This document shows positions 23,251 to 48,555 of a DNA stretch of 49,189 bases, piece by piece. A model generated the notes under the pieces. It worked only from the letters and a program-made list of their open reading frames with translations, ran no database searches and was not told the DNA's origin. The stretch is from a virus (taxonomy: Duplodnaviria; Heunggongvirae; Uroviricota; Caudoviricetes): IMG/VR virus record IMGVR_UViG_3300045988_153230. One strand, given 5' to 3'. The position numbers and the translations under genes are program-made. Position 1 is the first letter of the stretch, and each line of letters starts with the position of its first letter.

Positions 23251-25107
23251 CTATATGGTTACGCCTTTACTTATAACTCTACGGCGTCTTCTACGTATAC
23301 CTGACGAGTTCTGCACATACACATTACCTCGCATTTCCTGTTCGGCAAGCCAGTTAAAATTAGGGTTCAGAATTTCCATCGCGGCAGTTGCATAGTTACG
23401 GCAATCAAGAGGCTCGTTACGCTCGTAGACTTTCACCCATTTTTCTTTTGTCTGCCCATTTTTATATTCAAATATTTTTTTCTCTGATAATAATCCTTTA
23501 AAGTATTCGGTATCATATCCTCTGTCAGAATCTAATGGGAAATGCATATAACCAGGACCAGGATCATGTAGTTTAATTCTTGCCATGATGGTCCCTTTAC
23601 CATCATCAACCCCCAAATTAAACAACATAGCACCCACACGGTTATTATTACTTGGCTTTCCTATAAATGGTAAACCTACCCCACCACGCCCCCTGATAGA
23701 GTATATTCGCCTTGATTCTCTCGGCTTAGTAAAGCGATATACCTCTGTCGTAAAATGCCCACCAGAGTCAATACAAACGGAAGAAATCTGTAATTTTCGA
23801 CCGTCACGGAATGACCAGCTACGGAGTAAGTATTCATCAAGTTGTTTCCAGACAACATCTTGTGCGGGATCACCTGGGAATATTTTATATTCTATCCCCC
23901 ATGACTCCTTACCTTTTCCCCAACCGACCAATTCACAAACTAAATACGTGTCCTGTACGTCAACACCAGCACTTAACAATAAAACATCATCTGGTAAAAA
24001 CTCTTCAAACCTTATTCTGCGTTGCAACAAGTATTCAGGATCGATATCGTCTTTAGCATCCTCTTTCCATGGCTCACCCAGCTTAAGGTTAATAAACTCC
24101 ATTAATCCATTTTTATCGCGGTTTCTGGTTGCTTCCGTAAATTCTTCAACCAGCTCTGACAATGCAACCCACGGGGAGTAAAGACTGTTAATATGAAAAC
24201 CAACAATACCTTTAACTCCAGTATGTTCAGCTATCCATACCCCCTTCGCCAGCCAATCAACGTCTGGTTTACCAGATCCGCGCATAATCCCGCCGCACTC
24301 ACAGCACTCATATCTGGCCGTTTCCGGTAACGCCTCACCTGAATCGCTCTTATCCCATCTGACTTGCGACCATTTCATCACCTGCATGGTGCCACAACAT
24401 GGGCAAGGAACATGGTAGTAACGCTGATCGGAGAGCTTAAACCACTTGTGGATTTTGCTCGTTTCCTCCAAAACAGGAGTAGAAACAAAAACTTTCTTAC
24501 GATTATGAAAGTTGGTAGTACGCTGAATACCTAGTTTTAGTGGGTCGCCCTCCTGCGTCACACCGTAACGATCAATCTCATCAGCTAACAGTATTCGAAT
24601 TGGCCTGGATGCAAGACCTGCTGGGGAATTAGCACCAACAAGTGCTATATATCCACCAGCGTAATGCTTCATACGTATAGTCGTGCTGGACTTTTTGGCT
24701 GCACCGCGCCCCTCTTTCCCTTCATGCAGCTTGTGTTTCAAACCAGGGGAATATTTGAACGTCGGATCAATACGCTCTTTTGAAAAAGCCTCAGCCGCCT
24801 CTACCGTTGGATAAATCATCAACTGAGGAGATGGCTCCTGATCTGCAAAGTAACCCATAACATTTAGCTGTAATTCGGATTTACCAATTTGCGAGCTACA
24901 TTGCATCACTACTGTTTCTGTATCAGCGTCACCAATAACATCCATTGGTTCACGCAAATATGGCACTCGGCTTGTACGCCACGGCCCTGGTTCTGGAGAC
25001 GTTCCCGGCGCTACATGACGATACTTATCAGCCCATTCGGAAACAGTTAGCCGTGATTTAGGGCGAAGCGCACGGAAAAAAGCGGTGCTCCATACTGTTT
25101 CGCCCAT
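23251..25107 (-). CDS. Terminase large subunit, lambda GpA family
   Basis: 618 aa; Walker A-like QCSSQIGKSE and overall size match GpA-type terminases. Confidence 0.85.
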   Translation of the reverse strand: MGETVWSTAFFRALRPKSRLTVSEWADKYRHVAPGTSPEPGPWRTSRVPYLREPMDVIGDADTETVVMQCSSQIGKSELQLNVMGYFADQEPSPQLMIYPTVEAAEAFSKERIDPTFKYSPGLKHKLHEGKEGRGAAKKSSTTIRMKHYAGGYIALVGANSPAGLASRPIRILLADEIDRYGVTQEGDPLKLGIQRTTNFHNRKKVFVSTPVLEETSKIHKWFKLSDQRYYHVPCPCCGTMQVMKWSQVRWDKSDSGEALPETARYECCECGGIMRGSGKPDVDWLAKGVWIAEHTGVKGIVGFHINSLYSPWVALSELVEEFTEATRNRDKNGLMEFINLKLGEPWKEDAKDDIDPEYLLQRRIRFEEFLPDDVLLLSAGVDVQDTYLVCELVGWGKGKESWGIEYKIFPGDPAQDVVWKQLDEYLLRSWSFRDGRKLQISSVCIDSGGHFTTEVYRFTKPRESRRIYSIRGRGGVGLPFIGKPSNNNRVGAMLFNLGVDDGKGTIMARIKLHDPGPGYMHFPLDSDRGYDTEYFKGLLSEKKIFEYKNGQTKEKWVKVYERNEPLDCRNYATAAMEILNPNFNWLAEQEMRGNVYVQNSSGIRRRRRRVISKGVTI

Positions 25108-25112
25108 GAGGT

Positions 25113-25664
25113 TTATTCTTCCTGCTTAATAAATCGGGATTCCTGGAGCGCCTGAAGCGCAAAATTAATCTCGTCTTCAATAATGCGTTCGATCTCCCTG
25201 GCTGTTTTGCCTTCACAACGGGGAGCTGCTCTTGGAGCAATACTAAATAAGCGGCTACGCAATTCATTAGCTGCCAGAAATGCATCATCCCTGACCGCAT
25301 CTTTAGCGATGAGAGAGCCTTCCTTTTCTTCAAATTCAAGGCGTTTCAGCTTTGCCTGATAAATTTTTTCTGCGGTCTTAGCCTTGTTGAATTGCACCGC
25401 AACACCGGAAGTACCACCAGCTAATCCGGCATCATCAGCGGGTAACTCTGGTTGTTCCGAAGATATCCCATGCCCTCTTTTTCCATTTTCAGCAGATACC
25501 TCACGACCAACCTGTCGGCTCGCTTCATAAGCCGCACTGGCTTTATCAAAATCCAGCTTGCCGCTTTTCAGCACTGGAATGCGACCGGAACGACAGAGCT
25601 TCGTAACCATTGCCGGAGAAATACCTTTCCGGCGGGCAAACTCTGACTTACTGACGATGGCCAT
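25113..25664 (-). CDS. Terminase small subunit
   Basis: 183 aa from ATG at 25664 (MAIVSKSEFARRKGISPAMVTKL..., N-terminal HTH), directly upstream of the large subunit; 1-nt stop/start overlap with the upstream gene. Confidence 0.65.
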   Translation of the reverse strand: MAIVSKSEFARRKGISPAMVTKLCRSGRIPVLKSGKLDFDKASAAYEASRQVGREVSAENGKRGHGISSEQPELPADDAGLAGGTSGVAVQFNKAKTAEKIYQAKLKRLEFEEKEGSLIAKDAVRDDAFLAANELRSRLFSIAPRAAPRCEGKTAREIERIIEDEINFALQALQESRFIKQEE

Positions 25665-26254
25665 TACTTGCAACCATTAGCAAGATACTGCACAAATCCC
25701 TCATGCGTTTCATGCGCGTCGTGGTACTGACGATAAACATCCAGCAACAATGCAATTTCCATATCCGTCGCGGGAATACGTTCTTTATCAATAGCCAGGT
25801 ACTTAATTTGAACAACAGGGGAAGAATTATCGTCTTCTTCCTGCGGCTGTTCATCGCTTAACATTTCGTCAAGCTCTGCATCATTAAACCCAAGCAGATC
25901 AATATCAAAATCATCATCCATTAACTCTTTGACTTCTTCGGCCAGAAGCTGCATATCCCAGCCAGCATTTAAGGCCAGCTTGTTATCTGCAATCCTGTAA
26001 GCCTTCTTCTGTTTTTCAGAAAGGTTACTCAACCGAATCGCCGGAACTTTATCCATTTCCAGAATTTCGGCTGCTGCAAGCCGACCATGCCCCGCAATCA
26101 GTTCATTCTTTTCATCGATCAGCACAGGATTAGTGAACCCGAACTCACGGATACTGTTCACCAACTGTTCAACCTGCTCATCTGAATGAGTCCGTGAATT
26201 TTTGGCGTATCTGAGCAGCTTACCGACTGGTAAATATTCGATTTTTAGAGCCAT
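25664..26254 (-). CDS. ParB/Srx-like nuclease-domain protein, paralog 1
   Basis: 196 aa; ...KNSRTHSDEQVEQLVNSIREFGFTNPVLIDEKNELIAGHGRLAAA... ParB N-terminal domain motif; paralogous to 28921..29544. Confidence 0.7.
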   Translation of the reverse strand: MALKIEYLPVGKLLRYAKNSRTHSDEQVEQLVNSIREFGFTNPVLIDEKNELIAGHGRLAAAEILEMDKVPAIRLSNLSEKQKKAYRIADNKLALNAGWDMQLLAEEVKELMDDDFDIDLLGFNDAELDEMLSDEQPQEEDDNSSPVVQIKYLAIDKERIPATDMEIALLLDVYRQYHDAHETHEGFVQYLANGCK

Positions 26255-26811
26255 TTTTTAACCGCCATAACACAACAGGTTAAAGAAAACCGTTTAACTT
26301 ATTGATACTAAAAGAGAAAAATGACGATCTTTTTACTCATAAAAAATCACACAAAACAGCATAATTATCTGATTTTATTAAGTTTTTATAAGTAAAAAGG
26401 ATCTTGAGATGGTTTTTTGGTTAAAAGATTGGATGTATTTGCATGATTTATAACGATTTTTATCAGAACAACATCACATTGGTTAAAGATCTGCGCGTAT
26501 CTTGATGATCTAAAAGAAAATTTTCTACTTTCTTTTTACCAGCACAAATACAGCAAAAAATCACGTTTTCCCGATATTTTTCAATGAGATGAGTAAATTT
26601 CTTTTACCGCAACTTTTAACCTAACTTTTTTCACGTTTAGCTAGCCGAACATCGGGGTTCGAATGACCCGCATCCAACGCTTTTGGCCAGAAGGACCCAA
26701 TTCTGCCGGACGATGAAACGATGCTCGTACTCCCCCACAGACAGCCAGCGAGCGACGCTACAGAACACAGTGAATACACTCTGCATAACAACACCATCAA
26801 CCACACGATGA

Positions 26812-27531
26812 TTAACGAGAGAAGGTCTTAGAAAGAATGTCATCAATAGCCTTTGTGACTTCATCAGCAAACGCATCCTCACCAGCACGCAGCGCCACGC
26901 CATGCCAATCAAGACGCTGCGAATAGTTAGGTTGCTGGATAAACGTAAGGATCAACGTAGGACGCCGCCCAACGCGCTGCCAGACGCCTGGTTGAAGCGG
27001 GTTACTTGTACCAGGTCGAACAACAAAAAACTCCGTAGGCTTGCCCTGACGGCGATTTTGATGCGCATCTCGCTGAACTCTTAGGCCAGATAAGACCTGC
27101 TGTAATTGCCCCCGCGAAATATTCCCGTATTTGTCCAGCTTTGCGCCGGGACCAGGAGCAAGCTGCCAGCCGTTAGGCAAATATCCACCAGCCCTTAGCG
27201 CCCCTTCTGAGCGTTTGTACTGTCGTTGGCCACCTTCGATTTGCGGAGTCAACGTTACAGGGGCTGGCGTTCCTCCCCATTCACGAGCATACACAATGGC
27301 TGTAGGATCACTCTTCTTTGCGGCCAAAACGTAAGTAGAGTTCTGAATCCACGGCGTGGGCCTGTCAAATACCCGATTAATTTCATTCTTAATCGCAGCC
27401 TGAGAAGCCTTTGCCGTTCTGGTTGCCGCAAGCGCCATTGCGAACGGCAATTCGCGTTCTTCAAGGCGCTGGAGTTGTCGTTGAATATCCTGAGAAGAAA
27501 AATCCATCTTTATCTCAATTCTGTCAGCCAC
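26812..27531 (-). CDS. Hypothetical protein inside the ParB-domain cluster
   Basis: 239 aa; GTG start at 27531 preceded by AGGGGG. No family recognised. Confidence 0.5.
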   Translation of the reverse strand: MADRIEIKMDFSSQDIQRQLQRLEERELPFAMALAATRTAKASQAAIKNEINRVFDRPTPWIQNSTYVLAAKKSDPTAIVYAREWGGTPAPVTLTPQIEGGQRQYKRSEGALRAGGYLPNGWQLAPGPGAKLDKYGNISRGQLQQVLSGLRVQRDAHQNRRQGKPTEFFVVRPGTSNPLQPGVWQRVGRRPTLILTFIQQPNYSQRLDWHGVALRAGEDAFADEVTKAIDDILSKTFSR

Positions 27532-27547
27532 CAGCGCCCCCTACAGA

Positions 27548-28921
27548 CTACTTAATCAACGGCCGGAAAGCCGCCAGCACATCATCAGATCGTCCGATTG
27601 TTGAACCACCAGGCAACGGCAACTCAAACTCAAAACGAACAGCTTTCTCCAGACTCGCCCAACTAAGGGAATCATCGTTAATGACGTGCAAATACCAGCT
27701 CTTACAGTTGAATATTGACCGCTTAATCCTGAAACCATGTACACGACACAACTGCTTCACTTCCTCATCAGAGTGAAACTTCTGGTAAAACCAGTGCCCC
27801 TTCCGGTACAACGCGGTAAAACCGTTATGATCAATAAAATAAAGCCGGCTTTTGGAACTCGCCGCCTGTGTTTGCTTCAGGACTGTTTCCAGCTCTCCAC
27901 GGCTACGACCAGAAAAGAATATTGACCCACCAGCTTTACACAGGCCTTTCAGAACCGTCAGAACGGACCATTCAGCCTCGACACTATCGACCGAGTTCAA
28001 AACGCTATCGCAAATCACGTAGTCGTAACGCCCTCGCGTTTTTAAGTCATCCACCAGCGTATCAATCATCCGGTTTGTTGCGGTCCTATCCAGAGTGTTT
28101 CCAGCGCCCTTACGGCGGAAAAGCTCGAGATCATGCAGGTTATATCCCTTTGCCCTGAGCATTCGCGCGTAGTCTCCCTGCCCCGAACCAAAATCAATTC
28201 CTCTTGGCGTCTTGGCAATGATCGGGAGGATCAACGACTCATACAGATTTGATTTCAGGCTGCCACCATTACGCAACCGCATAAGCTGCGCATACGTCTG
28301 GATGTATGTTGTTTTCTCCAGATGAGAATACTCAAATACACCATAAGTTTTATTCAGATAACTTTGGTATTTTTCCTTCTCAACATCAGGGATCACAAAC
28401 ACCGTTAGCGGTGTGCGCGTCATCTTCGCTGCTAATGCATACTGAGCACAATGAATAACCTCACCAGACTGAGTAGCAACACAACCACCCCACGGACCAT
28501 ACTTGATAACCAGTTCCGCTATGTTCTTTCGAACATATGCCATTTTCGCGCGCATATTGCCTGAGATCTGGCTTGCCGATACCTGAACAAAACCATGCTT
28601 ATCTTCCAGACCGGACACCCTGCAACGCTCATCTCCGCTATCAAAATCCGTTCCGTTATGCAGTTGGTTAAACCGTACTTCGTCGTATACCGTCGTTTCA
28701 CAGGGCAACACATACACCGCAGCACGCGTTATTCCCAACTTACGTAGCGCCTTCGTCCTTTGGTGTCCCGCCACCAGCAAATCGCCGCGCACTATCAATG
28801 GCTTCACAAGCCCCAGCTCCCTGACGCTTTCCGCCAGCCTCGCAAGATCATCCTCACCGATAAAACGCGGGTTATATTCCGCGCCGCGTAGGTGCGTTAT
28901 GTCGTAATTCAGGTGAAGCAT
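27548..28921 (-). CDS. ParB-like domain fused to class I SAM-dependent methyltransferase
   Basis: N-terminal ...LGLVKPLIVRGDLLVAGHQRTKALRKLG... (ParB/Srx motif); C-terminal Rossmann MTase motifs GIDFGSGQGDYARML (motif I), acidic LHDLE, YDYVICDSVLNSV, LKGLCKAGGSIFFSG. No DPPY/NPPY motif, so not a canonical amino-MTase. ATG at 28921 overlaps the stop of the upstream ParB gene. Confidence 0.7.
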   Translation of the reverse strand: MLHLNYDITHLRGAEYNPRFIGEDDLARLAESVRELGLVKPLIVRGDLLVAGHQRTKALRKLGITRAAVYVLPCETTVYDEVRFNQLHNGTDFDSGDERCRVSGLEDKHGFVQVSASQISGNMRAKMAYVRKNIAELVIKYGPWGGCVATQSGEVIHCAQYALAAKMTRTPLTVFVIPDVEKEKYQSYLNKTYGVFEYSHLEKTTYIQTYAQLMRLRNGGSLKSNLYESLILPIIAKTPRGIDFGSGQGDYARMLRAKGYNLHDLELFRRKGAGNTLDRTATNRMIDTLVDDLKTRGRYDYVICDSVLNSVDSVEAEWSVLTVLKGLCKAGGSIFFSGRSRGELETVLKQTQAASSKSRLYFIDHNGFTALYRKGHWFYQKFHSDEEVKQLCRVHGFRIKRSIFNCKSWYLHVINDDSLSWASLEKAVRFEFELPLPGGSTIGRSDDVLAAFRPLIK

Positions 28922-29544
28922 CAGCACACCTCCCCAGCCAGCAATGCGGATACAAATCCGATATAGCTGCCATTATCATCAACATAACGAGACACCGCGC
29001 AGTCAAAACGATCCGCTTCCTCATCCGTTGCCGGGATTTTATGACCTCCAAATGACAGGTACTGAACTTTTACGCCTGATTTGGCCTCATCCTTCTCAAA
29101 TGGGATATCCATACCCTCTGTGTCATCGTAGACCGCCGCACTCAATAAGTTATCCAGTTCGCGCTGAGTAAAACCAATTGAGTCCAGAGCAAAATCATCG
29201 GCCGCAAGATCTGCAAGTTCCGCGCTTAACAACTCTTCATCCCAACCAGCATTCAGCGGAATACGGTTGTCGGCCAGACGATATGCCTTCTTCTGATTCT
29301 CCGTTAGCCCTTCCAGAACAATGCAGGGAACGTCATCCATCCCCAACTGAGTGGCCGCAGCAATTCGACCATGACCAGCAATTACAACGTTGTTCTCGTC
29401 TATCAGGATCGGATTAGTCCATCCGTACTCCTGTATGCTGGCAACAATCTGATCTACCTGCTCCACGGAGTGTGTGCGAGCGTTCTTTTCATAACCAATC
29501 AACACAGAAAGTGGTAAAGAAACCACATTAAGATGTTTTGTCAT
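28921..29544 (-). CDS. ParB/Srx-like nuclease-domain protein, paralog 2
   Basis: 207 aa; ...KNARTHSVEQVDQIVASIQEYGWTNPILIDENNVVIAGHGRIAAA...; clear paralog of 25664..26254. Confidence 0.7.
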   Translation of the reverse strand: MTKHLNVVSLPLSVLIGYEKNARTHSVEQVDQIVASIQEYGWTNPILIDENNVVIAGHGRIAAATQLGMDDVPCIVLEGLTENQKKAYRLADNRIPLNAGWDEELLSAELADLAADDFALDSIGFTQRELDNLLSAAVYDDTEGMDIPFEKDEAKSGVKVQYLSFGGHKIPATDEEADRFDCAVSRYVDDNGSYIGFVSALLAGEVC

Positions 29545-29789: not shown

Positions 29790-30107
29790 TCAAACGGATG
29801 CGGCCGTTTCGTCGTCTTCAAGTACCGCGCCTTCTGGCAAATCAACACAGGCAAAAACAGGGCAGCCAGGATAACGATCATCTTCCATCGCAATCAGCAT
29901 CGACTCACCGAACCACTCTGTGGTAGCACGACCATCAGCCGCCTGATAGTGAATCAGATACTGGTTTTCGCCATTTGCATACTGAGCACGGGCTTGAACT
30001 TCTCCCCACTCTTCACTGATACGCATTGTTACCAGTTGGGATAATTCAAACTTAAACGGAACAGACTCTGCACCAATGGCAATCGGTTTATCTTCTTTCT
30101 TTTCCAT
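29790..30107 (-). CDS. Hypothetical protein
   Basis: 105 aa from ATG at 30107 (MEKKEDKPIAIG...) with AGGTGA RBS. Confidence 0.5.
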   Translation of the reverse strand: MEKKEDKPIAIGAESVPFKFELSQLVTMRISEEWGEVQARAQYANGENQYLIHYQAADGRATTEWFGESMLIAMEDDRYPGCPVFACVDLPEGAVLEDDETAASV

Positions 30108-30156
30108 AACATCACCTGAAAATAAAAAGCCCCGCGACACCGCGAGGCTGTAAGAG

Positions 30157-30309
30157 TTACTTTCGATATAAATCAAGGCGCATTTGCTCCCGCTTAAGCC
30201 GAAAAGCTCTCTGCGCCACTAAGATGCGCCACAGGACACCAGCAACAACCACCAGCGAGAAACAAAACCACACGGCCATAATCACCAGAAAAATGCCAAG
30301 ACCATTCAT
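30157..30309 (-). CDS. Small hydrophobic protein (50 aa)
   Basis: ATG at 30309 giving MNGLGIFLVIMAVWFCFSLVVVAGVLWRILVAQRAF...; below the ORF-track size cut-off; followed by a hairpin plus T-run on the minus strand (~30124..30150). Confidence 0.35.
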   Translation of the reverse strand: MNGLGIFLVIMAVWFCFSLVVVAGVLWRILVAQRAFRLKREQMRLDLYRK

Positions 30310-30512
30310 GAAACTATCCATTTTCCAATGAATACCTCCAGTAATATCAAGAGATACGCCATACCAATTGCGTTTCCTATCGATATAGCCAAGACAAACC
30401 TCAAAGATAACGAGGTGTCTTTCGCTTTTCTCCAGACGTAAGCGCCAGCCAGAAATACCAACAAATCTCTTATTGGAAGCGGTAACCAGAACAAATCACC
30501 AGACAAATCCAC
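30306..30512 (-). CDS. Small membrane protein
   Basis: 68 aa with two hydrophobic segments, tightly packed between neighbours. Confidence 0.45.
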   Translation of the reverse strand: MDLSGDLFWLPLPIRDLLVFLAGAYVWRKAKDTSLSLRFVLAISIGNAIGMAYLLILLEVFIGKWIVS

Positions 30513-30514
30513 GG

Positions 30515-30970
30515 TTATATCCTTCCATTAATTTTTATCGGATGACCAGATAGCCTTACGCAGTTGAGCTGTAAAGCTCCGGTATCAACTAACTGATCAA
30601 CTAACATGATTAGAGCTTCATATTCAGACTGATAGCTAACCTGACGCATTCGACCGCCGTTGTTCTCCAGAATGTCGGCCACCTTTGCAGCCAACTCGCT
30701 TAGACAGGAGAACTTATTCCCATATATCGTTTTATACTCGCGCTTCTGGCATTCTTCGGCTTGCGGCTGGTTATCGAAAGCTATCAGCGACCGATGGCTA
30801 TCAAGGAAGTCCACAATCTCATTCAGGCACTCTTTAGCTGCCTCATCGTGACTTTTTCCGTATGCTTCATGGAGGACTTTCATCCTCATCATTGCTCCAT
30901 CACATATAGTCGAAAGCGCATAAAGCACATCACTAACCGCCATTTCTTTTTTGGTGCTTGTCGAAGGCAT
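30515..30970 (-). CDS. Hypothetical protein
   Basis: 151-codon ORF in operon context; no family recognised. Confidence 0.5.
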   Translation of the reverse strand: MPSTSTKKEMAVSDVLYALSTICDGAMMRMKVLHEAYGKSHDEAAKECLNEIVDFLDSHRSLIAFDNQPQAEECQKREYKTIYGNKFSCLSELAAKVADILENNGGRMRQVSYQSEYEALIMLVDQLVDTGALQLNCVRLSGHPIKINGRI

Positions 30971-31044
30971 CCCATGTTCTCCTTTGTCTGGATGTAAAAA
31001 AGCCCCGGCAATTGCCGAGGCTTGTTGTTCGTTATCGTTACGGT

Positions 31045-31266
31045 TTAATGCTCGCGTCGTCCGGCGACAACTTCGGATTTGAATTTCAGGTCGCCCAGCA
31101 AGAATTGCAGTTTAAGCATCTTTGCCGCCGTGTAGTTCCCTGATTCCACAACCTCTTTCATGAGGTCATAAACGGCCGCTACATCATCAGCCAGGAACTC
31201 TTTGCGTTGCTGCTCAGTCGCACGTTTGAAGGAAATACGCATTACTTTACGGTCTTGTTCTTTCAT
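31045..31266 (-). CDS. Hypothetical small protein, first gene after promoter/leader cassette copy 1
   Basis: 73 aa; ATG at 31266 with GGAGA RBS supplied by the conserved cassette. Confidence 0.55.
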   Translation of the reverse strand: MKEQDRKVMRISFKRATEQQRKEFLADDVAAVYDLMKEVVESGNYTAAKMLKLQFLLGDLKFKSEVVAGRREH

Positions 31267-31383
31267 CGGGTTATCTCCGGTTTAACCAGGGCGGGTATCG
31301 CTCGGTTTCGGGTATAACCTTAGGAAATTTTTTCCCACCTGTAAAGCACTTTTTATATAAATCTATAATTATATAATTCTATA
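31267..31383 (-). promoter_or_regulatory. Conserved ~115 bp promoter/leader cassette, copy 1
   Basis: Near-identical to 38340..38452 and 48439..48555; contains AT-rich palindromes (TATAATTATATAATT) and the RBS (GGAGATAACCCG-ATG on minus strand) of the downstream gene. Confidence 0.6.
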
Positions 31384-31966
31384 CCACTTGCCAGAGAGCA
31401 TCATGCAACTGGATACCTCCATTGCACTGGTTGCCCCAGCCATGCCAGCCATCAGGTAAATCACCGCGAGCAAACAGCTCAATACGAGGAACATCGCCTA
31501 ACAGCTTTACCAGCTTGTCACGGACCACATCAGGCTTCCGAGAATGCTCCAGACGAGGCGATGTAAACGACTGAATGATCCCCGCATCAAGACGGGTCGG
31601 CAGTTTGCCTTTTACCGCAAACAAGCAATCTTCACTGTTTGCACGAGTCATATGCCCCATCCCCATCACCAGCTTATCTGGTTGTCGGCTACCACATTTG
31701 TTCCATGTGAAGCCCTTCATGGTCATCAGCCTGAATCCCCATGCTTTCACCACCAGCAACGCTTCTTCTGGCTGAGTCGGAACCCACCACATGGCCAACA
31801 AACACGATTCAGGATTAGCAAGCTGCCAGACAGGAATACGAGCAATATCCTCAGCTTTCATCGTTGGATACTTAAAACCAGCGCCACGATTCCCATCCTT
31901 ACACTTGTCTTTGTATTCCCAGGGGGGATCTGCATAAATCAGATTAAACAATGCAATTGCCTCCAT
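31379..31966 (-). CDS. DNA N6-adenine methyltransferase, MT-A70 family
   Basis: 195 aa; N-terminal LIYADPPWEY motif (DPPW) typical of MT-A70/phage Dam-like methylases. Confidence 0.8.
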   Translation of the reverse strand: MEAIALFNLIYADPPWEYKDKCKDGNRGAGFKYPTMKAEDIARIPVWQLANPESCLLAMWWVPTQPEEALLVVKAWGFRLMTMKGFTWNKCGSRQPDKLVMGMGHMTRANSEDCLFAVKGKLPTRLDAGIIQSFTSPRLEHSRKPDVVRDKLVKLLGDVPRIELFARGDLPDGWHGWGNQCNGGIQLHDALWQVV

Positions 31967-32274: not shown

Positions 32275-32350
32275 TGGTGGCCCCTACCGGATTTGAACCG
32301 ATGACCGTGCGATTATGAGTCGCCAGCTCTAACCACTGAGCTAAGGGGCC
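32275..32350 (-). tRNA. tRNA with CAU anticodon (Ile2/Met type, ileX-like)
   Basis: Minus-strand sequence GGCCCCTTAGCTCAGTGGTTAGAGCTGGCGACTCATAATCGCACGGTCATCGGTTCAAATCCGGTAGGGGCCACCA folds by eye into acceptor, D, anticodon (loop CTCATAA) and T arms with encoded CCA; the 5' half matches E. coli ileX as I recall it. Confidence 0.85.
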
Positions 32351-32922: not shown

Positions 32923-33461
32923 ACCACCACTCGCTCTTTCATCCAGCCGTAGACAAACGACTCATTCGCCTCGCGCTTCTCCGCCAACTCCAGATAGCGT
33001 TCGCCCTGCGTACAGTTCAGCGACGTCAGCATCACCCGTTCGCCGTCTTTTCCCCGATTCCCAAGATAAGCACGCAGCGCATTAATGGTACGTGGACCGA
33101 TTCGTCCATCTGCATCCAAATCGGGATACAGCTTCCCACGCAGATTGAACACATTCAGCCAGCGTTGAAGCATTTTGGACGCCACTGTTGGCCCCATATT
33201 CACACCGGTATCACACAGCTCTGCGGCAATATCAGAGGATAATGCGGCCACCTGATCAAAGCGTGGTCCGTACCAGTAATCAGCCTCAAGGATTTCTAGT
33301 GCCTGTTCGCGGGTTAAATCGCGCATATCGCCACGGTATCCATGAGCACGGGCAGTGTTCTGAGTAATGCCCCACTTTGTTGGGCCTCCCTTGTCGTCAG
33401 GGTGATCCACATAGCCGCCCTCTTTTCCAAGAATGCTGTTAAAAATCTCATCTTTGGTCAT
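32919..33461 (-). CDS. Endolysin, GH108-type lysozyme with peptidoglycan-binding domain
   Basis: 180 aa; N-terminal ILGKEGGYVDHPDDKGGPTKWGIT motif characteristic of GH108 family endolysins. Confidence 0.8.
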   Translation of the reverse strand: MTKDEIFNSILGKEGGYVDHPDDKGGPTKWGITQNTARAHGYRGDMRDLTREQALEILEADYWYGPRFDQVAALSSDIAAELCDTGVNMGPTVASKMLQRWLNVFNLRGKLYPDLDADGRIGPRTINALRAYLGNRGKDGERVMLTSLNCTQGERYLELAEKREANESFVYGWMKERVVV

Positions 33462-33744
33462 GATTAAATCCTAATGCGTCAACTATCCGCGCCAGATTGC
33501 CCCTGAAATACAGAACAACGATGCAGATAATCAGATTTCCAATAACCACCAGCCAGTGGGATTCTTGATAAAGACCGAACACATAACGGAAGGGAACATT
33601 GGCGTATACAATGACGTAGATATAAGCCAGAAAGGAAACAAATGGACGATGCCTGGAGTCTTTCCGTCGATAAAGCATCAGCGCCATTACTATTACTGTG
33701 CAAAGCACCGCATTAATCAGTGCTGACGGGTCACTGCTTACCAT
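33448..33744 (-). CDS. Membrane protein, probable holin/antiholin
   Basis: ~98 aa from ATG at 33744 (strong GGAGGGGG RBS) with three hydrophobic segments; immediately upstream of the endolysin. Confidence 0.55.
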   Translation of the reverse strand: MVSSDPSALINAVLCTVIVMALMLYRRKDSRHRPFVSFLAYIYVIVYANVPFRYVFGLYQESHWLVVIGNLIICIVVLYFRGNLARIVDALGFNHDQR

Positions 33745-34126
33745 TTGAACCCCCTCCACGTAAGCGGGAAAGCATTCCAAAGATGCTACCGAGATCCTGG
33801 CTGTTTACGAACGTGAGGATTTTAATGGTCAATGCAGCCACAATAACCGCACCAAGCGCATCCAGAGGACGATCGTTGTAGCTGGTCCATTTGGCAAGAA
33901 ATGAGCCAACTAACGGCGCTCCAATCACTCCAACAATGAACGATGTAAAGAAATAGCCAATCAGCTTGAGACGGCTAATATTCACCGCTGTAGCAACATA
34001 GAAAACAGCGCCAGCAAATGCCCCGAATACAACGCCGTAATCAATACCAGTTGCAATACCAAAAACGCTGGCACCCATCAGGCCACCAGCAGCAACGGCC
34101 GTACCGGAAATTGGTTCTGCTGACAT
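33731..34126 (-). CDS. Putative holin
   Basis: 132 aa from ATG at 34126 (GAGGA RBS), multiple Gly/Ala-rich transmembrane segments; first gene of the lysis cassette. Confidence 0.6.
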   Translation of the reverse strand: MSAEPISGTAVAAGGLMGASVFGIATGIDYGVVFGAFAGAVFYVATAVNISRLKLIGYFFTSFIVGVIGAPLVGSFLAKWTSYNDRPLDALGAVIVAALTIKILTFVNSQDLGSIFGMLSRLRGGGSNGKQ

Positions 34127-34139
34127 TGAAATCCTCGTT

Positions 34140-34169
34140 AAAAAAAAGCCCCGCCGAAAAAGGCAGGGC
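34140..34169 (-). terminator. Rho-independent terminator just upstream of the holin gene
   Basis: Minus strand GCCCTGCC-TTTTTC-GGCGGGGC followed by T8, ending ~15 nt before the holin RBS. Confidence 0.55.
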
Positions 34170-34503
34170 TTCATAAAGCAACAAATTACGCGGTAATCGC
34201 TTAACGCAGTTTTACTACGTTAAATGAAACACTACACCCAGTTACCACCTAAAACAAGGTTTTCCCACAAAAAAACCTTCATATCGTGGTTAATTGATCG
34301 ATAAAAAAGCAATGTTCAACTTTTTACCAACCGAACATCCCGACCAGGACTTCCATAATATTCGCCGATATGCCACTGCTTAAGTTGAGTAATCTTCTCC
34401 AACATAACTCCCATAGAGTCCAGTTTCTGCCATGTTTTCGGTTGTATGTGCTTCATTACCCGCTCTGAATATCTGAATACTGCTCGTAGCCTCGCTAAAT
34501 TGC

Positions 34504-37271: not shown

Positions 37272-38339
37272 TCAGGCTTTCAATAGCGATTCTTTCAGAT
37301 ATCGGGCATCAGCCAGGGCGTTTGGAGTAATCTTGCGAACCCATGCATTACGGGTTGGACTCCACTTAAAGGCGCGTGATTTAAGCAGCGAACGAATGTT
37401 TGCCTCTGGTTTGCCAGGGAAATAAAACAGGATGCGGTTATCCTCTGGATCTATCTCCATAGAAAAGCCGTCGTATTCTTCGCGCTGTGCTCCTGTTACA
37501 GACTTGACCGATTCAAGCTCCTTAATACGGCTCTGTAGTCGTTTGATTTCGGCGTTATTGTTGCTCAGTGCGTATGAAGGGAATCCGATGCGCCCACAGA
37601 AATCTCCGGCCAGTAACTCTTTGGCTTCGCTTTCTGTAAACCTGAGATCGATTAATGCAGAAAGCTGCTGTAATTGGTCTTTTTTGTATTTGCGAATGGC
37701 CTTATTTGCGGCCTTCATTTTGACGTGTGACTTCATGCAGCCTTGCAGCTTACGAAGCAACTTAAATAGCGCATCAGGATCATCAGACGAAATTCCATTA
37801 CGACCAACACCTGCGGCTTTGCTCTCGTAGTGTGATGCTTTACTTTCGCATTCAACAAACGCTTTTCTGAATAACGCATCAGCTTTAGACAAACGGCGGC
37901 GATGGCCTTTCGCGCTATAATGGTCAACTAAAATCGGCTGGCCTAACGGGATCACATCCAACAGGTCATGCGCTCGCTTATGCGCTACCGCTCCTTCTTT
38001 TCTGGCTTTTTCTGCACGAGCAATATATCGGGCAAGACGCGCGTTCTGGCGTTCCTGATAGGTATTTACGTAATCATCTCCGCGCTGCTGCTGTTCAAGC
38101 CATGCTTTGCGCAGCTCTTCTGTTACGTCCACCAGCTCCGCAGGGATACAACCTGTTTGGGCTTCATAAGAGTAACCATCCTCATAGATGCGCCCATCGT
38201 CTTCAACAAAGAAAAAGGTTTCGTGCTCATCGCTTTTGACCATACGACCATTAACATGGCGTAATAGGTAGCCAGTATCAGTGCTTAACAGGCTGTTAGG
38301 GTTGTTGATCCAGTCAGAAATAATTACTTGTTTATTCAT
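37272..38339 (-). CDS. DUF3560-like phage protein
   Basis: 355 aa with C-terminal ...RAFKWSPTRNAWVRK...; first gene after cassette copy 2. Confidence 0.5.
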   Translation of the reverse strand: MNKQVIISDWINNPNSLLSTDTGYLLRHVNGRMVKSDEHETFFFVEDDGRIYEDGYSYEAQTGCIPAELVDVTEELRKAWLEQQQRGDDYVNTYQERQNARLARYIARAEKARKEGAVAHKRAHDLLDVIPLGQPILVDHYSAKGHRRRLSKADALFRKAFVECESKASHYESKAAGVGRNGISSDDPDALFKLLRKLQGCMKSHVKMKAANKAIRKYKKDQLQQLSALIDLRFTESEAKELLAGDFCGRIGFPSYALSNNNAEIKRLQSRIKELESVKSVTGAQREEYDGFSMEIDPEDNRILFYFPGKPEANIRSLLKSRAFKWSPTRNAWVRKITPNALADARYLKESLLKA

Positions 38340-38452
38340 CAGATTTCTCCGGTTTAACCAGGGCGGGTATCGCTCGGTTTCGGGTATAACCTTAGGAAAT
38401 TTTTTCCCACCTGTAAAGCACTTTTTATATAAATCTATAATTATATATTTAT
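38340..38452 (-). promoter_or_regulatory. Conserved ~115 bp promoter/leader cassette, copy 2, in late-promoter position downstream of Q
   Basis: Near-identical to copies at 31267..31383 and 48439..48555; lies directly 3' of the Q-like gene, where lambdoid phages place P_R'/qut. Confidence 0.6.
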
Positions 38453-38508
38453 ATATTTTCGATGTTCCCGATGTCTACACACCATCAAAACAGCTCAAAA
38501 TGACACTT

Positions 38509-42284: not shown

Positions 42285-42307
42285 CCAAACACATGGAGTC
42301 TCGACAA

Positions 42308-42961
42308 ATGACTATCTCTGTAGGTATTTTCAACGGAAAAGGCGGCGTAACCAAATCAACAATTGCCCGTGCTTTAGCAGTTGCTTATGCAAAGGCTGGC
42401 TGGAATGTATGCCTGATCGATATGGATGTGCTTAACGGAACGGTAACGCGTTGGGTACAACGCAGAATGGCCAACAATATCGAACCAGCAATCGCGGCGC
42501 AGCCGTGCGGCACACCATCACAAGTCCAGAAAATCATCGAATCAGAAATATACGACCTGGTTATCGTCGATGGCGGTGCCTACGCATCTGAATCAGTACC
42601 GAAGCTCTCTGAATTTCTGGATATGGTTATTTTGCCAACCAGATTCTCTACCGATGACCTGGAAACCACCGTTAACACAGCTCACGGCATCGTTAAAAAG
42701 GGTGTACCAATCAAGAAAATTTGCATGGTGTTTTCCGGCGCGGCTGAAAACGAAGCTGACTATATTGAAGCCCAAGAGTACCTGGCTAATACGCCATACT
42801 TTGTTGTCGATAAGTACATTCCCCACAAGCCAGCTCTGAGCAAAGCTCAGGATAAGGGCTTAAGCCTCATTGAGTGCTCATACGTTGCGCCACGCAAAAA
42901 GGCAGACGACGTTATTCAGGGGATTATCAACCAGCTTGAGGCTCTGACTACTGCCGCGTAA
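42308..42961 (+). CDS. parA: ParA-family partition ATPase (type Ib, ParF-like)
   Basis: ~217 aa from ATG at 42308 (GGAG RBS): MTISVGIFNGKGGVTKSTIA... deviant Walker A near the N-terminus. Confidence 0.8.
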   Translation: MTISVGIFNGKGGVTKSTIARALAVAYAKAGWNVCLIDMDVLNGTVTRWVQRRMANNIEPAIAAQPCGTPSQVQKIIESEIYDLVIVDGGAYASESVPKLSEFLDMVILPTRFSTDDLETTVNTAHGIVKKGVPIKKICMVFSGAAENEADYIEAQEYLANTPYFVVDKYIPHKPALSKAQDKGLSLIECSYVAPRKKADDVIQGIINQLEALTTAA

Positions 42962-43004: not shown

Positions 43005-43253
43005 ATGGCCGCACCATCAAAACCACCAAAGAAGAACAGCAAAGGCGTACCGCCATCGATCGAACAACCGCAGGTTTTCGACCCGACTGAAACGCCAACC
43101 AGAACCAAATCAGGTGGGGCACAAATGGCGTTTAACGTCGACCCTGAATTTAAACGCGAGTACAAAACGTTCGCCAGCTCAATGGATATGTCATTGAAAG
43201 AAGTGCTGACAAAATCTTTTGAGTTACTCAAGGCTCAATACAACCAGAAGTAA
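43005..43253 (+). CDS. Ribbon-helix-helix centromere-binding protein (ParG-like)
   Basis: 82 aa; Pro/Lys-rich flexible N-terminal tail and C-terminal ...MAFNVDPEFKREYKTFASSMDMSLKEVLTKSFELLKAQ... with RHH-like beta-alpha-alpha pattern; directly downstream of parA. Confidence 0.65.
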   Translation: MAAPSKPPKKNSKGVPPSIEQPQVFDPTETPTRTKSGGAQMAFNVDPEFKREYKTFASSMDMSLKEVLTKSFELLKAQYNQK

Positions 43254-48057: not shown

Positions 48058-48438
48058 TTACTTAACGAGGAATAAAAATGGTTTATTGTTCGGCGGTGTA
48101 ATCGGGGCTGGCTCGCTTTTGCTCATGCGATCAGTGTACCAGGCCAACTCCTTGTCAAAGTAAGCCTGATTAAAATAGGCCATGAATGTAGTTTCAAATC
48201 CATAACGACCGCTAATACGCAGCATCTGATTGCCGTTCTCTGTTTCCAGATATACCTGGGCACGTTCCTGATTCTCCTTCAGCCAGGTTAAAGCCTCATC
48301 GCATGAGGACACACGATACTCATCATCGTAGCAGTCATCGATGCGGCTTGAGGAAGAACGGCAAATCACGCCAACAGAACCAGCCAGGATAGTTTGAATT
48401 TTAAGGAAAGCGTTTTTGCGGATTTTAATCATGCTCAT
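48058..48438 (-). CDS. Hypothetical protein (126 aa), first gene after cassette copy 3
   Basis: ATG at 48438 with the cassette-supplied RBS; its middle part (48278..48332) is duplicated at window positions 1..55. Confidence 0.55.
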   Translation of the reverse strand: MSMIKIRKNAFLKIQTILAGSVGVICRSSSSRIDDCYDDEYRVSSCDEALTWLKENQERAQVYLETENGNQMLRISGRYGFETTFMAYFNQAYFDKELAWYTDRMSKSEPAPITPPNNKPFLFLVK

Positions 48439-48555
48439 CGGGTTATCTCCGGTTTAACCAGGACGGGTATCGCTCGGTTTCGGGTATAACCTTAGGAAAT
48501 TTTTTCCCACCTGTAAAGCACTTTTTATATAAATATATAATTATATAATTCTATG
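48439..48555 (-). promoter_or_regulatory. Conserved ~115 bp promoter/leader cassette, copy 3
   Basis: Near-identical to copies 1 and 2, including TATATAATTATATAATT palindrome and RBS/start context. Confidence 0.6.

Follow-up and report, generated by a model that had tools for sequence, protein, structure and literature searches.

A ParB–methyltransferase gene module beside the terminase of a phage-plasmid and of phages across bacterial phyla

What does a phage do with a cluster of ParB/Srx-domain proteins, one of them fused to a methyltransferase of a non-DNA type, and what does it mean that this cluster lies next to the terminase? In this work, we address the question at positions 25664–29544 of the viral record IMGVR_UViG_3300045988_153230, a stretch of 49,189 nucleotides (nt; the whole of it is referred to as the window) that belongs to a phage-plasmid of Escherichia coli and Yersinia. 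Phages often carry ParB–methylase modules just upstream of the terminase, and these are poorly understood; the cluster studied here is a real, uncharacterised variant of that theme. Its core unit comprises a small stand-alone ParB protein (ParB2) and a fusion of a ParB domain, a middle domain and a methyltransferase, to which this lineage has added a second copy of the small ParB (ParB1). We tentatively favour a role in methylating phage DNA and weigh this below against four other explanations.

Three ParB/Srx proteins, one with a methyltransferase domain

The open reading frames (ORFs) named in the original prediction, the MT-A70 gene and the terminase all lie on the minus strand where it had placed them, and the cluster does adjoin the terminase, the genes for its small subunit (TerS) and its GpA-type large subunit (TerL) following directly downstream of ParB1. 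Lengths of proteins are given in amino acids (aa).

28921–29544, minus strand: ParB2, 207 aa, stand-alone ParB/Srx protein with Box II AGHGR
27548–28921, minus strand: ParB–methyltransferase fusion, 457 aa, or 459 aa if translation begins at a GTG at 28927
26812–27531, minus strand: ORF of 239 aa, phrog_1924, HK97 gp10-like fold
26657–26668: probable cosN, a 12-nt cohesive end reading GGTCATTCGAAC on the minus strand, as judged from record ends
26255–26656: AT-rich non-coding stretch between cosN and ParB1, with many short direct and inverted repeats
25664–26254, minus strand: ParB1, 196 aa, Box II AGHGR, first gene after the probable cos site
25113–25664, minus strand: TerS, 183 aa from its ATG (phrog_57, E value 7e-42), a 552-nt RefSeq coding sequence in the plasmid of E. 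coli ATCC 25922
23251–25107, minus strand: TerL of the lambda GpA type (GpA_ATPase, E value 7e-76; GpA_nuclease, E value 1e-84)
31379–31966, minus strand: stand-alone MT-A70 N6-adenine methyltransferase, 195 aa, with DPPW at residue 13

The stop codon of ParB2 overlaps the start codon of the fusion in the sequence TGATG, and that of ParB1 overlaps the start of TerS in TAATG.

Profile searches against Pfam, PHROGs and PDB sequences bore out the ParB domains in all three proteins and the methyltransferase domain in the fusion. For ParB_N in Pfam, ParB1 scores above the cutoff (33.7 against 26.3 bits) and ParB2 and the fusion just under it (24.8 and 24.3 bits), the call for the fusion being backed by its PHROG and PDB sequence matches. 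The best PDB sequence matches of the window's ParB domains are Spo0J, ParB and Noc, with E values of 1e-4 to 1e-2. The two small proteins had been predicted to be paralogous; they are 48% identical over their full length, which makes them, judged by sequence, true paralogues. Both match phrog_620 from end to end (E values 5e-75 for ParB1 and 3e-74 for ParB2), and relatives of the window keep separate orthologues of each, at 79–81% identity and, in more distant cases, 60–66%. The ParB domain of the fusion is more divergent, with 28% identity to ParB2 over 74 residues.

The first roughly 150 residues of ParB1 and ParB2 match phrog_498, which holds ParB–N6/N4 DNA methylases (E values 4e-52 and 1e-50), and the N-terminal part of the PADLOC MTase_II model PDLC03229 (residues 2–148 of ParB1 against positions 7–157, E value 2e-40; residues 11–151 of ParB2, E value 6e-38). 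By these profile matches, both belong to the ParB clade that is normally fused to N6/N4 DNA methylases, and a tblastn search with the ParB module reached 402 phage records, many among the matches listed being annotated as DNA methylases. Since neither a PF01555 domain (Pfam) nor a (D/N/S)PP(Y/F/W) motif (regular expression) is present in ParB1, ParB2 or the fusion, the window's proteins are kin of the MTase_II ParB module only and not members of that system. A reading as a defence system was considered and set aside: PADLOC matches only the ParB part of the type II methylase model, and the context is a phage late operon. Scores against TIGR00180, the model of canonical partition ParBs, are 40.1, 31.0 and 16.4 bits for a cutoff of 58.45 bits, and the Box II motifs of the three proteins (AGHGR, AGHGR and AGHQR) do not match the canonical GERRxRA.

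The fusion starts with a ParB/Srx domain (residues 1 to about 95, Box II AGHQRTKA), continues with a middle region (about 100–195) and a class I S-adenosylmethionine (SAM) methyltransferase domain (about 230–415, motif I DFGSGQG), and ends in C-terminal helices. The methyltransferase domain matches Methyltransf_23 (PF13489) with an E value of 7.9e-8 and 32.6 bits (cutoff 27), and almost the whole protein aligns with phrog_5475, annotated as of "unknown function" (residues 3–459 on profile positions 1–457 of 458, E value 2e-265). Both domains of the originally proposed two-domain fusion are thus present, but the structure predicted with AlphaFold2 (AF2; predicted local distance difference test score 94, predicted template modelling score 0.90) adds a separate domain of about 100 residues between them. 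A profile of this middle region had no matches in PDB sequences or Pfam, and the model suggests a separate domain that belongs to no sequence-detectable family. An internal ParB duplication was examined as its origin and was not borne out by sequence: the order of secondary-structure elements in residues 110–190 of the AF2 model mirrors that of residues 1–90, but hhalign of the two sub-alignments gave a probability of 0.3%.

In an alignment of 63 sequences that includes the window's fusion, the P-motif A51-G52-H53-Q54-R55 and the SAM motif I residues D243, F244, G245 and G247 are invariant, as are E266, D305, N309 and D312. Many arginines and lysines of the methyltransferase domain are conserved (R270, R339, R373, K381 and R444). 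The fusion belongs to an extensive and homogeneous family: a large protein collection yielded 715 matches to it, the best 120 of which are almost all about 460 aa long and 45–60% identical across Proteobacteria. Among 50,697 deposited phage genomes, only 7 encode the fusion, four of these seven being the window's own group. It is not a routinely annotated DNA methylase: relatives of the fusion and the ParBs carry public names such as 'hypothetical', 'ParB N-terminal domain-containing', 'methyltransferase domain-containing' and 'nuclease', and neither these generic names nor the phrog_5475 annotation describes a known phage DNA methylase of the same architecture.

Gene order beside the terminase

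To place the cluster in context, we assembled loci with relatives of the fusion, 77 from viral contigs and 78 from genomes, and clustered all their ORFs; the first clustering set comprised 80 loci, namely viral contigs, four further loci and the window. A stand-alone ParB of about 207 aa from the ParB1/ParB2 family lies on the same strand at position −1 or −2 from the fusion in 61 of the 63 viral loci with room upstream, mostly overlapping the fusion gene by 4–14 nt, and a ParB precedes the fusion in 30 of 37 genome loci from outside Streptomyces. Of 62 viral loci, at least 47 have a TerL gene 0.3–3.5 kb downstream, and these terminases come from at least four families (GpA, Terminase_6, TerL_ATPase and Terminase_3). 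The terminase-adjacent arrangement is also found in Streptomyces prophages, and the isolated Bacteroides phage BS-TP3 has the order ParB, methyltransferase, TerS, TerL.

The hosts of the fusion's relatives span at least eight phyla (Gamma- and Alphaproteobacteria, Bacillota, Bacteroidota, Planctomycetota, Chloroflexota, Myxococcota, Kiritimatiellia and Actinomycetota, including Streptomyces). From E. coli phage-plasmids to prophages of Streptomyces, Bacteroides and Planctomycetes, the gene order stays the same, with one or two separate ParBs accompanying a methyltransferase of a non-DNA type, and this deep conservation argues that the function is important in late infection. Psychrobacter phage pOW20-A and Streptococcus phage Javan28 have ParB–N6/N4 methylases immediately upstream of the terminase, and the first gene beside TerS in Rhodobacter phage RcMamaDuck is a stand-alone ParB.

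Two tandem small ParBs per module recur in Bacteroidota, with 33–38% identity within pairs, and a second small ParB has arisen at least twice independently, there and in the window's lineage. The module is amplified in several loci of Bacteroidota and Eggerthellaceae (L122–L125, L127, L142 and L146 of our sample), the Bacteroidota loci sometimes having two fusions, and three Chloroflexota loci (L103, L110 and L112) carry two or three fusion genes in tandem.

A further gene accompanies the module in many lineages. Directly after the fusion, most genome loci and, within the first clustering set, 44 of 80 loci encode a protein of about 145 aa (145–170), in lineages from Proteobacteria to Streptomyces and Bacteroidota; its residues W20, H32-C33, Y66, C68-G69, N79, H81 and C131-R132-N133 are invariant. 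Searches of Pfam, PHROGs, NCBIfam, PADLOC and PDB sequences gave no match for this family, and its gene is missing from the Lelliottia, Serratia and Pantoea loci examined. Examples lie at 2210–2644 in locus L006, at 9419–9883 in L004, from 7382 in L092 and from 7441 in L126, and the gene has a convergent orientation in some loci. Beside this ParB, fusion and 145-aa triad, a Bradyrhizobium prophage (L004/L005, 11054–17196) encodes on the opposite strand an Amidoligase_2 protein, two GGACT/AIG2-like proteins and an MTS/N6_Mtase-like methyltransferase.

The MT-A70 protein of the window covers all of PF05063 (profile positions 1–172 of 172, E value 4e-23; Pfam) and its gene lies 1.8 kb upstream of the cluster on the same strand. 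It was considered as a conserved partner and rejected, as its linkage to the module is confined to the window's own clade (6 loci).

The remaining gene of the predicted tandem cluster encodes the 239-aa protein, which had been said to have no recognisable family. It does match one, phrog_1924, with an HK97 gp10-like neck fold, and in cos phages without ParB genes members of this family are encoded just upstream of TerS. Its gene sits at the right end of the genome, outside the head–tail gene block. The most likely assignment is a virion neck or tail-completion protein, and it is probably a neighbour of the ParB–methyltransferase module and not a member.

The cluster also appears to be divided in virion DNA. 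The Yersinia phages vB_YpM_39, 41 and 44, which are about 99% identical and were assembled independently, have records that start and end within the 558 nt that separate the 239-aa gene from ParB1. The break points of vB_YpM_41 and 39 are exactly 12 nt from that of vB_YpM_44, in the context GGATGCG/GGTCATTCGAAC/CCCGATG, and the 12-mer is assigned to opposite ends in the records. An offset of 12 nt is what the fill-in of a cohesive end produces, and so points to a cohesive end of that length; positions 26657–26668 are, on the evidence of these record ends, the probable cosN. The predicted genes of the tandem cluster are all present, but this cos site would split them: one end of the virion DNA would carry ParB1, TerS and TerL, and the opposite end would carry ParB2, the fusion and the neck-like gene. 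The stretch 26255–26656 occupies the position of lambda cosB and, by that position, may have the corresponding role. A non-coding RNA in the 558-nt gap was considered and discarded, there being no Rfam match at E ≤ 0.1.

Possible roles and the phage-plasmid setting

The reading that we prefer, and regard as quite possible if short of probable, is that ParB2 and the fusion form a nucleoside triphosphate-gated, ParB-assisted methylation module that acts on phage DNA, its putative substrate, before packaging. The module would be expressed late and made together with the packaging proteins. The ParB/Srx domain of the fusion would bind ATP through the arginine motif GHQR, and the fusion, to which the small ParB gene is translationally coupled, would pair with one or more stand-alone ParBs. 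This nucleotide-gated ParB assembly would then bring the class I SAM methyltransferase to its substrate or hold it there, much as ParBs activate the 5mYOX enzymes described below. The target, acted on during packaging or shortly before it, would be replicated phage DNA or something attached to that DNA, and the most likely benefit would be evasion of host restriction or other defences, protecting the DNA in the next host. Of these elements, we infer the formation of a ParB complex, DNA as the substrate and the anti-restriction benefit.

We favour DNA modification because ParB1 and ParB2 are kin to the ParB domains of DNA methylases that occupy the same pre-terminase slot, and a ParB-assisted mechanism because the 5mYOX activators and the GmrS/GmrSD doublets likewise pair a ParB-only gene with an effector. 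Among the roles first proposed for the cluster, DNA modification fits best and packaging-site recognition is possible for ParB1, but a partition or silencing function is unlikely, given TIGR00180 scores below the cutoff, no helix–turn–helix (HTH) domain found and a separate ParA locus.

Several observations weigh against DNA methylation. The weak point is the methyltransferase domain itself, which carries no DNA-methylase signature: as the original prediction had noted, a regular-expression search for [DNS]PP[YFW] finds no such motif in the fusion, whereas the separate MT-A70 enzyme has its DPPW, no C5 methylase motifs were noticed either, and the domain looks like a small-molecule or RNA enzyme. 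Pfam detects no HTH or other DNA-binding domain in the three ParB proteins. The module co-occurs with ordinary DNA methylases (MT-A70 in the window, others elsewhere), so that it is not the phage's sole methylase. The gene for the ~145-aa protein is absent from the window (best E value 2.8 for its hidden Markov model against the six reading frames), and the window's version may thus work differently. Finally, synteny with the terminase would equally fit a role in packaging or as virion cargo.

Should the module act on DNA, its chemistry is probably new, and here again ParB folds would serve as nucleotide-gated loaders of DNA-modifying enzymes. A bolder form of this proposal, which we consider rather doubtful, is that an ATP-gated heteromeric ParB assembly loads a non-canonical methyltransferase on phage DNA before packaging and leaves a mark other than N6-methyladenine, N4-methylcytosine or 5-methylcytosine, for example by methylation of a ring nitrogen, an oxygen or a phosphate; this would be a new phage DNA-modification system spanning several phyla, with the ~145-aa Cys/His protein as a third component in most lineages. 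The locus is experimentally tractable, as the plasmid resides in E. coli ATCC 25922 and has plaque-forming relatives in Yersinia phages vB_YpM_39, 41 and 44.

The resemblance to small-molecule and RNA enzymes gives the best of the alternatives its substance, namely that the fusion has a non-DNA substrate, be it a small molecule or nucleotide, an RNA or a protein; a tRNA, a virion protein or a signal of host defence would be examples. The ParB/Srx domain would then be an ATP-using enzyme or sensor, as in sulfiredoxin or the serine kinase SerK, instead of a DNA clamp, and the module would represent a new late-stage phage activity. We hold this to be unlikely, though it deserves to be kept in view, as the module sits in the same pre-terminase slot as ParB–N6/N4 DNA methylases and its obligatory partner is a ParB from the DNA-methylase-associated clade; the conserved arginines and lysines of the methyltransferase domain fit a polyanionic substrate, although nucleotides would satisfy them too.

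The tight linkage to TerS and TerL in four terminase families, with ParB1 as the first gene after the inferred cos and translationally coupled to TerS, raises the question of whether the ParB/Srx proteins assist packaging, as nickases or site-specific binders that aid the terminase in recognising or cutting cos or pac, comparable to the HNH proteins of HK97-like phages, with the methyltransferase marking or regulating that step. There is a precedent in the ParB–methyltransferase of a Bacillus cereus prophage, which nicks DNA and shares its slot with HNH nickases (PMC3592412). A cofactor of packaging would, however, be expected to co-vary with the terminase, whereas the linkage is independent of terminase type (cos-type GpA as well as headful-type Terminase_6 and Terminase_3) and most phages with these terminases do not have the module; the invariant SAM site moreover points to methyl transfer as the core activity. 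We therefore find a packaging role rather unlikely.

Less likely again is that the fusion, possibly with the small ParBs, is packaged in the capsid and injected, on entry either protecting the DNA or attacking host targets in the manner of the Dar proteins of phage P1 (the methylase DarB, and DdrB with its ParB-like domain). The genes are expressed late and adjoin head genes, and ParB-like domains do occur in virion-delivered phage proteins encoded beside structural genes (PMC5512222). In the window, however, the ParB genes and the fusion are sited upstream of TerS, outside the head genes, Pfam and PHROG detect no peptidase, MuF or other capsid-targeting domain, and the ParB domains match the methylase-linked phrog_620 and phrog_498, which together make virion cargo improbable.

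The last explanation arises from the element itself. The 49,189 bases of the window are a circular permutation of the 48.5-kb circular plasmid of E. coli ATCC 25922, with which they align from end to end except for short variable gaps, and a 5-kb query around the cluster shares about 99% identity with that plasmid, with Escherichia phage vB_EcoM-613R2 and with the Yersinia phages vB_YpM_39, 41 and 44. Of 5,426 complete E. coli genomes, 74 contain the region, at 82 places of which 79 are on plasmids. The ATCC 25922 plasmid is annotated as a contractile-tailed phage with RepA, a toxin–antitoxin pair, ParA, lysis genes and a lambda-type module for head and packaging. By its location and gene content, the element is therefore a phage-plasmid of about 49 kb.

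That this plasmid prophage uses its three ParB proteins for partition or for ParB-type silencing, as the public name of the small ones ('chromosome (plasmid) partitioning protein ParB') would have it, is very improbable, because a separate ParA locus exists (no ParA adjoins the cluster, and the nearest lies about 13 kb away with its own 82-aa partner), Box II reads GHGR or GHQR and not GERR, the TIGR00180 and HTH searches point the same way, and the family is found mostly in integrated prophages and non-plasmid phages, always beside the terminase. The separate locus consists of two genes that are, by their sequence features, the likely type Ib partition locus of the plasmid (42293–43253), apart from the ParB/Srx cluster.

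42293–42961, plus strand: ParA ATPase with CbiA, ParA and MipZ matches and Walker A motif GKGGVTKST
43005–43253, plus strand: basic protein of 82 aa downstream of ParA, with no Pfam match

Other features of the element were recorded on the way. The most variable part of the region, relative to the ATCC 25922 plasmid, lies just upstream of ParB2 (window 29790–30800 against 33111–34260 of NZ_CP009073.1) and includes an 81-nt insertion or deletion near 29807 and differing small ORFs around 30500–30790. Two strong terminator-like hairpins on the minus strand, at 31023–31000 and 30149–30128, stand between MT-A70 and ParB2. A search for sigma-70 promoters found none upstream of ParB2 and four weak sites in the region, where about 10 would be expected by chance, a result that says little because late promoters are probably activator-dependent. 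An element of about 120 nt is present in three near-identical copies on the minus strand (31254–31383, 38335–38454 and 48435–48555), each with an AT-rich palindromic stretch (TATAGAATTATATAATTATAGATTTATATAAAAAG) followed by TTTACA, a 17-nt spacer and TAAGGT, and ending in GGAGA..GATG. The copies supply the ribosome-binding site and start codon of three ORFs, one of 73 aa (31266–31045), one of 355 aa with DUF3560 (38339–37272) and one starting near 48435. They look like a promoter, operator and leader cassette repeated three times. A tRNA gene with anticodon CAT at 32275–32350 on the minus strand is called tRNA-Met by ARAGORN and tRNA-Ile by RefSeq on the near-identical plasmid; the latter would imply a lysidine-modified Ile2 tRNA.

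Relation to known systems

The genes of the cluster are already in public databases, and the fusion of a ParB-CTPase fold with Methyltransf_23 (PF13489) has been catalogued as enriched in phages and prophages, with no known role (Kaljevic et al., PNAS 2025, PMC12704722). The cluster had been put forward as a candidate for an undescribed system; this holds for its function, as the literature searched contained no functional study of the fusion family, but not for its architecture, which that survey lists. The window's fusion has the same domain pair as the survey's fusions, which are equivalent to phrog_5475, and an identical Box II, GHQRTKA. One bacterial, probably prophage-encoded 'Mtase23' protein with this Box II (Fig. 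S7) bound ATP in DRaCALA, a ligand assay by differential radial capillary action, and an arginine-to-alanine change in the P motif abolished nucleotide binding in the positive binders; kinship of the window's fusion with the ATP-binding protein rests on the shared motif. The survey treats the fusion as a two-domain protein of 'predicted DNA methyltransferase' activity and, as far as it was read, does not mention the terminase, and its text and supplements, as searched, make no mention of an overlapping ParB partner, the middle domain, the ~145-aa gene or the pre-terminase position. Likewise, we found no description in the literature searched of the coupled stand-alone ParB, the recurrent second ParB, the third gene or the fixed position before the terminase across at least eight phyla.

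With canonical ParABS ParBs (TIGR00180), the window's proteins share the N-terminal ParB/Srx fold and little else: they score below the family cutoff, have no GERR motif, no HTH found and no adjacent ParA, and are set in a late operon. Much closer are the phage ParB–N6/N4 methyltransferases (phrog_498, PDLC03229 and Bce_0392 of B. cereus), which the first ~150 residues of ParB1 and ParB2 resemble and with which they share the slot upstream of TerS or TerL, a slot in which the B. cereus prophage enzyme nicks DNA and which HNH nickases also occupy (PMC3592412). Unlike in these enzymes, the ParB module of the window is a separate protein, and the methyltransferase linked to it is of the Methyltransf_23 class, without a DPPY-type motif and with a divergent ParB domain of its own.

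Two recently described systems offer parallels for a ParB that works beside an enzyme. Phage ParBs that have no DNA-binding domain are obligatory activators of 5mYOX DNA thymine dioxygenases (O'Toole et al., bioRxiv 10.1101/2025.08.14.668559); like the window's ParBs, for which no HTH was found, they are small, consisting of a nucleotide-binding domain and a C-terminal part, and they adjoin a DNA-modifying enzyme, often on contigs that carry a terminase. Their dioxygenase partner, unlike the fusion, has no ParB domain of its own, and the likeness is one of analogy only; no 5mYOX, TET or JBP gene is annotated in the near-identical ATCC 25922 plasmid and none was seen in the neighbourhood of the cluster, no dedicated search of the window having been made. 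In the GmrS/GmrSD doublets of type IV restriction (Silas et al. 2025, PMC12373910), a ParB_n-only gene is paired with a ParB_n–nuclease gene and two GmrS-like genes are reported to be required, so that there, as in the window, a ParB-only protein is paired with a ParB–effector fusion. GmrS/GmrSD is a host defence of the DUF262 branch with a nuclease as its effector, whereas the cluster described here is a phage module whose effector is a methyltransferase.

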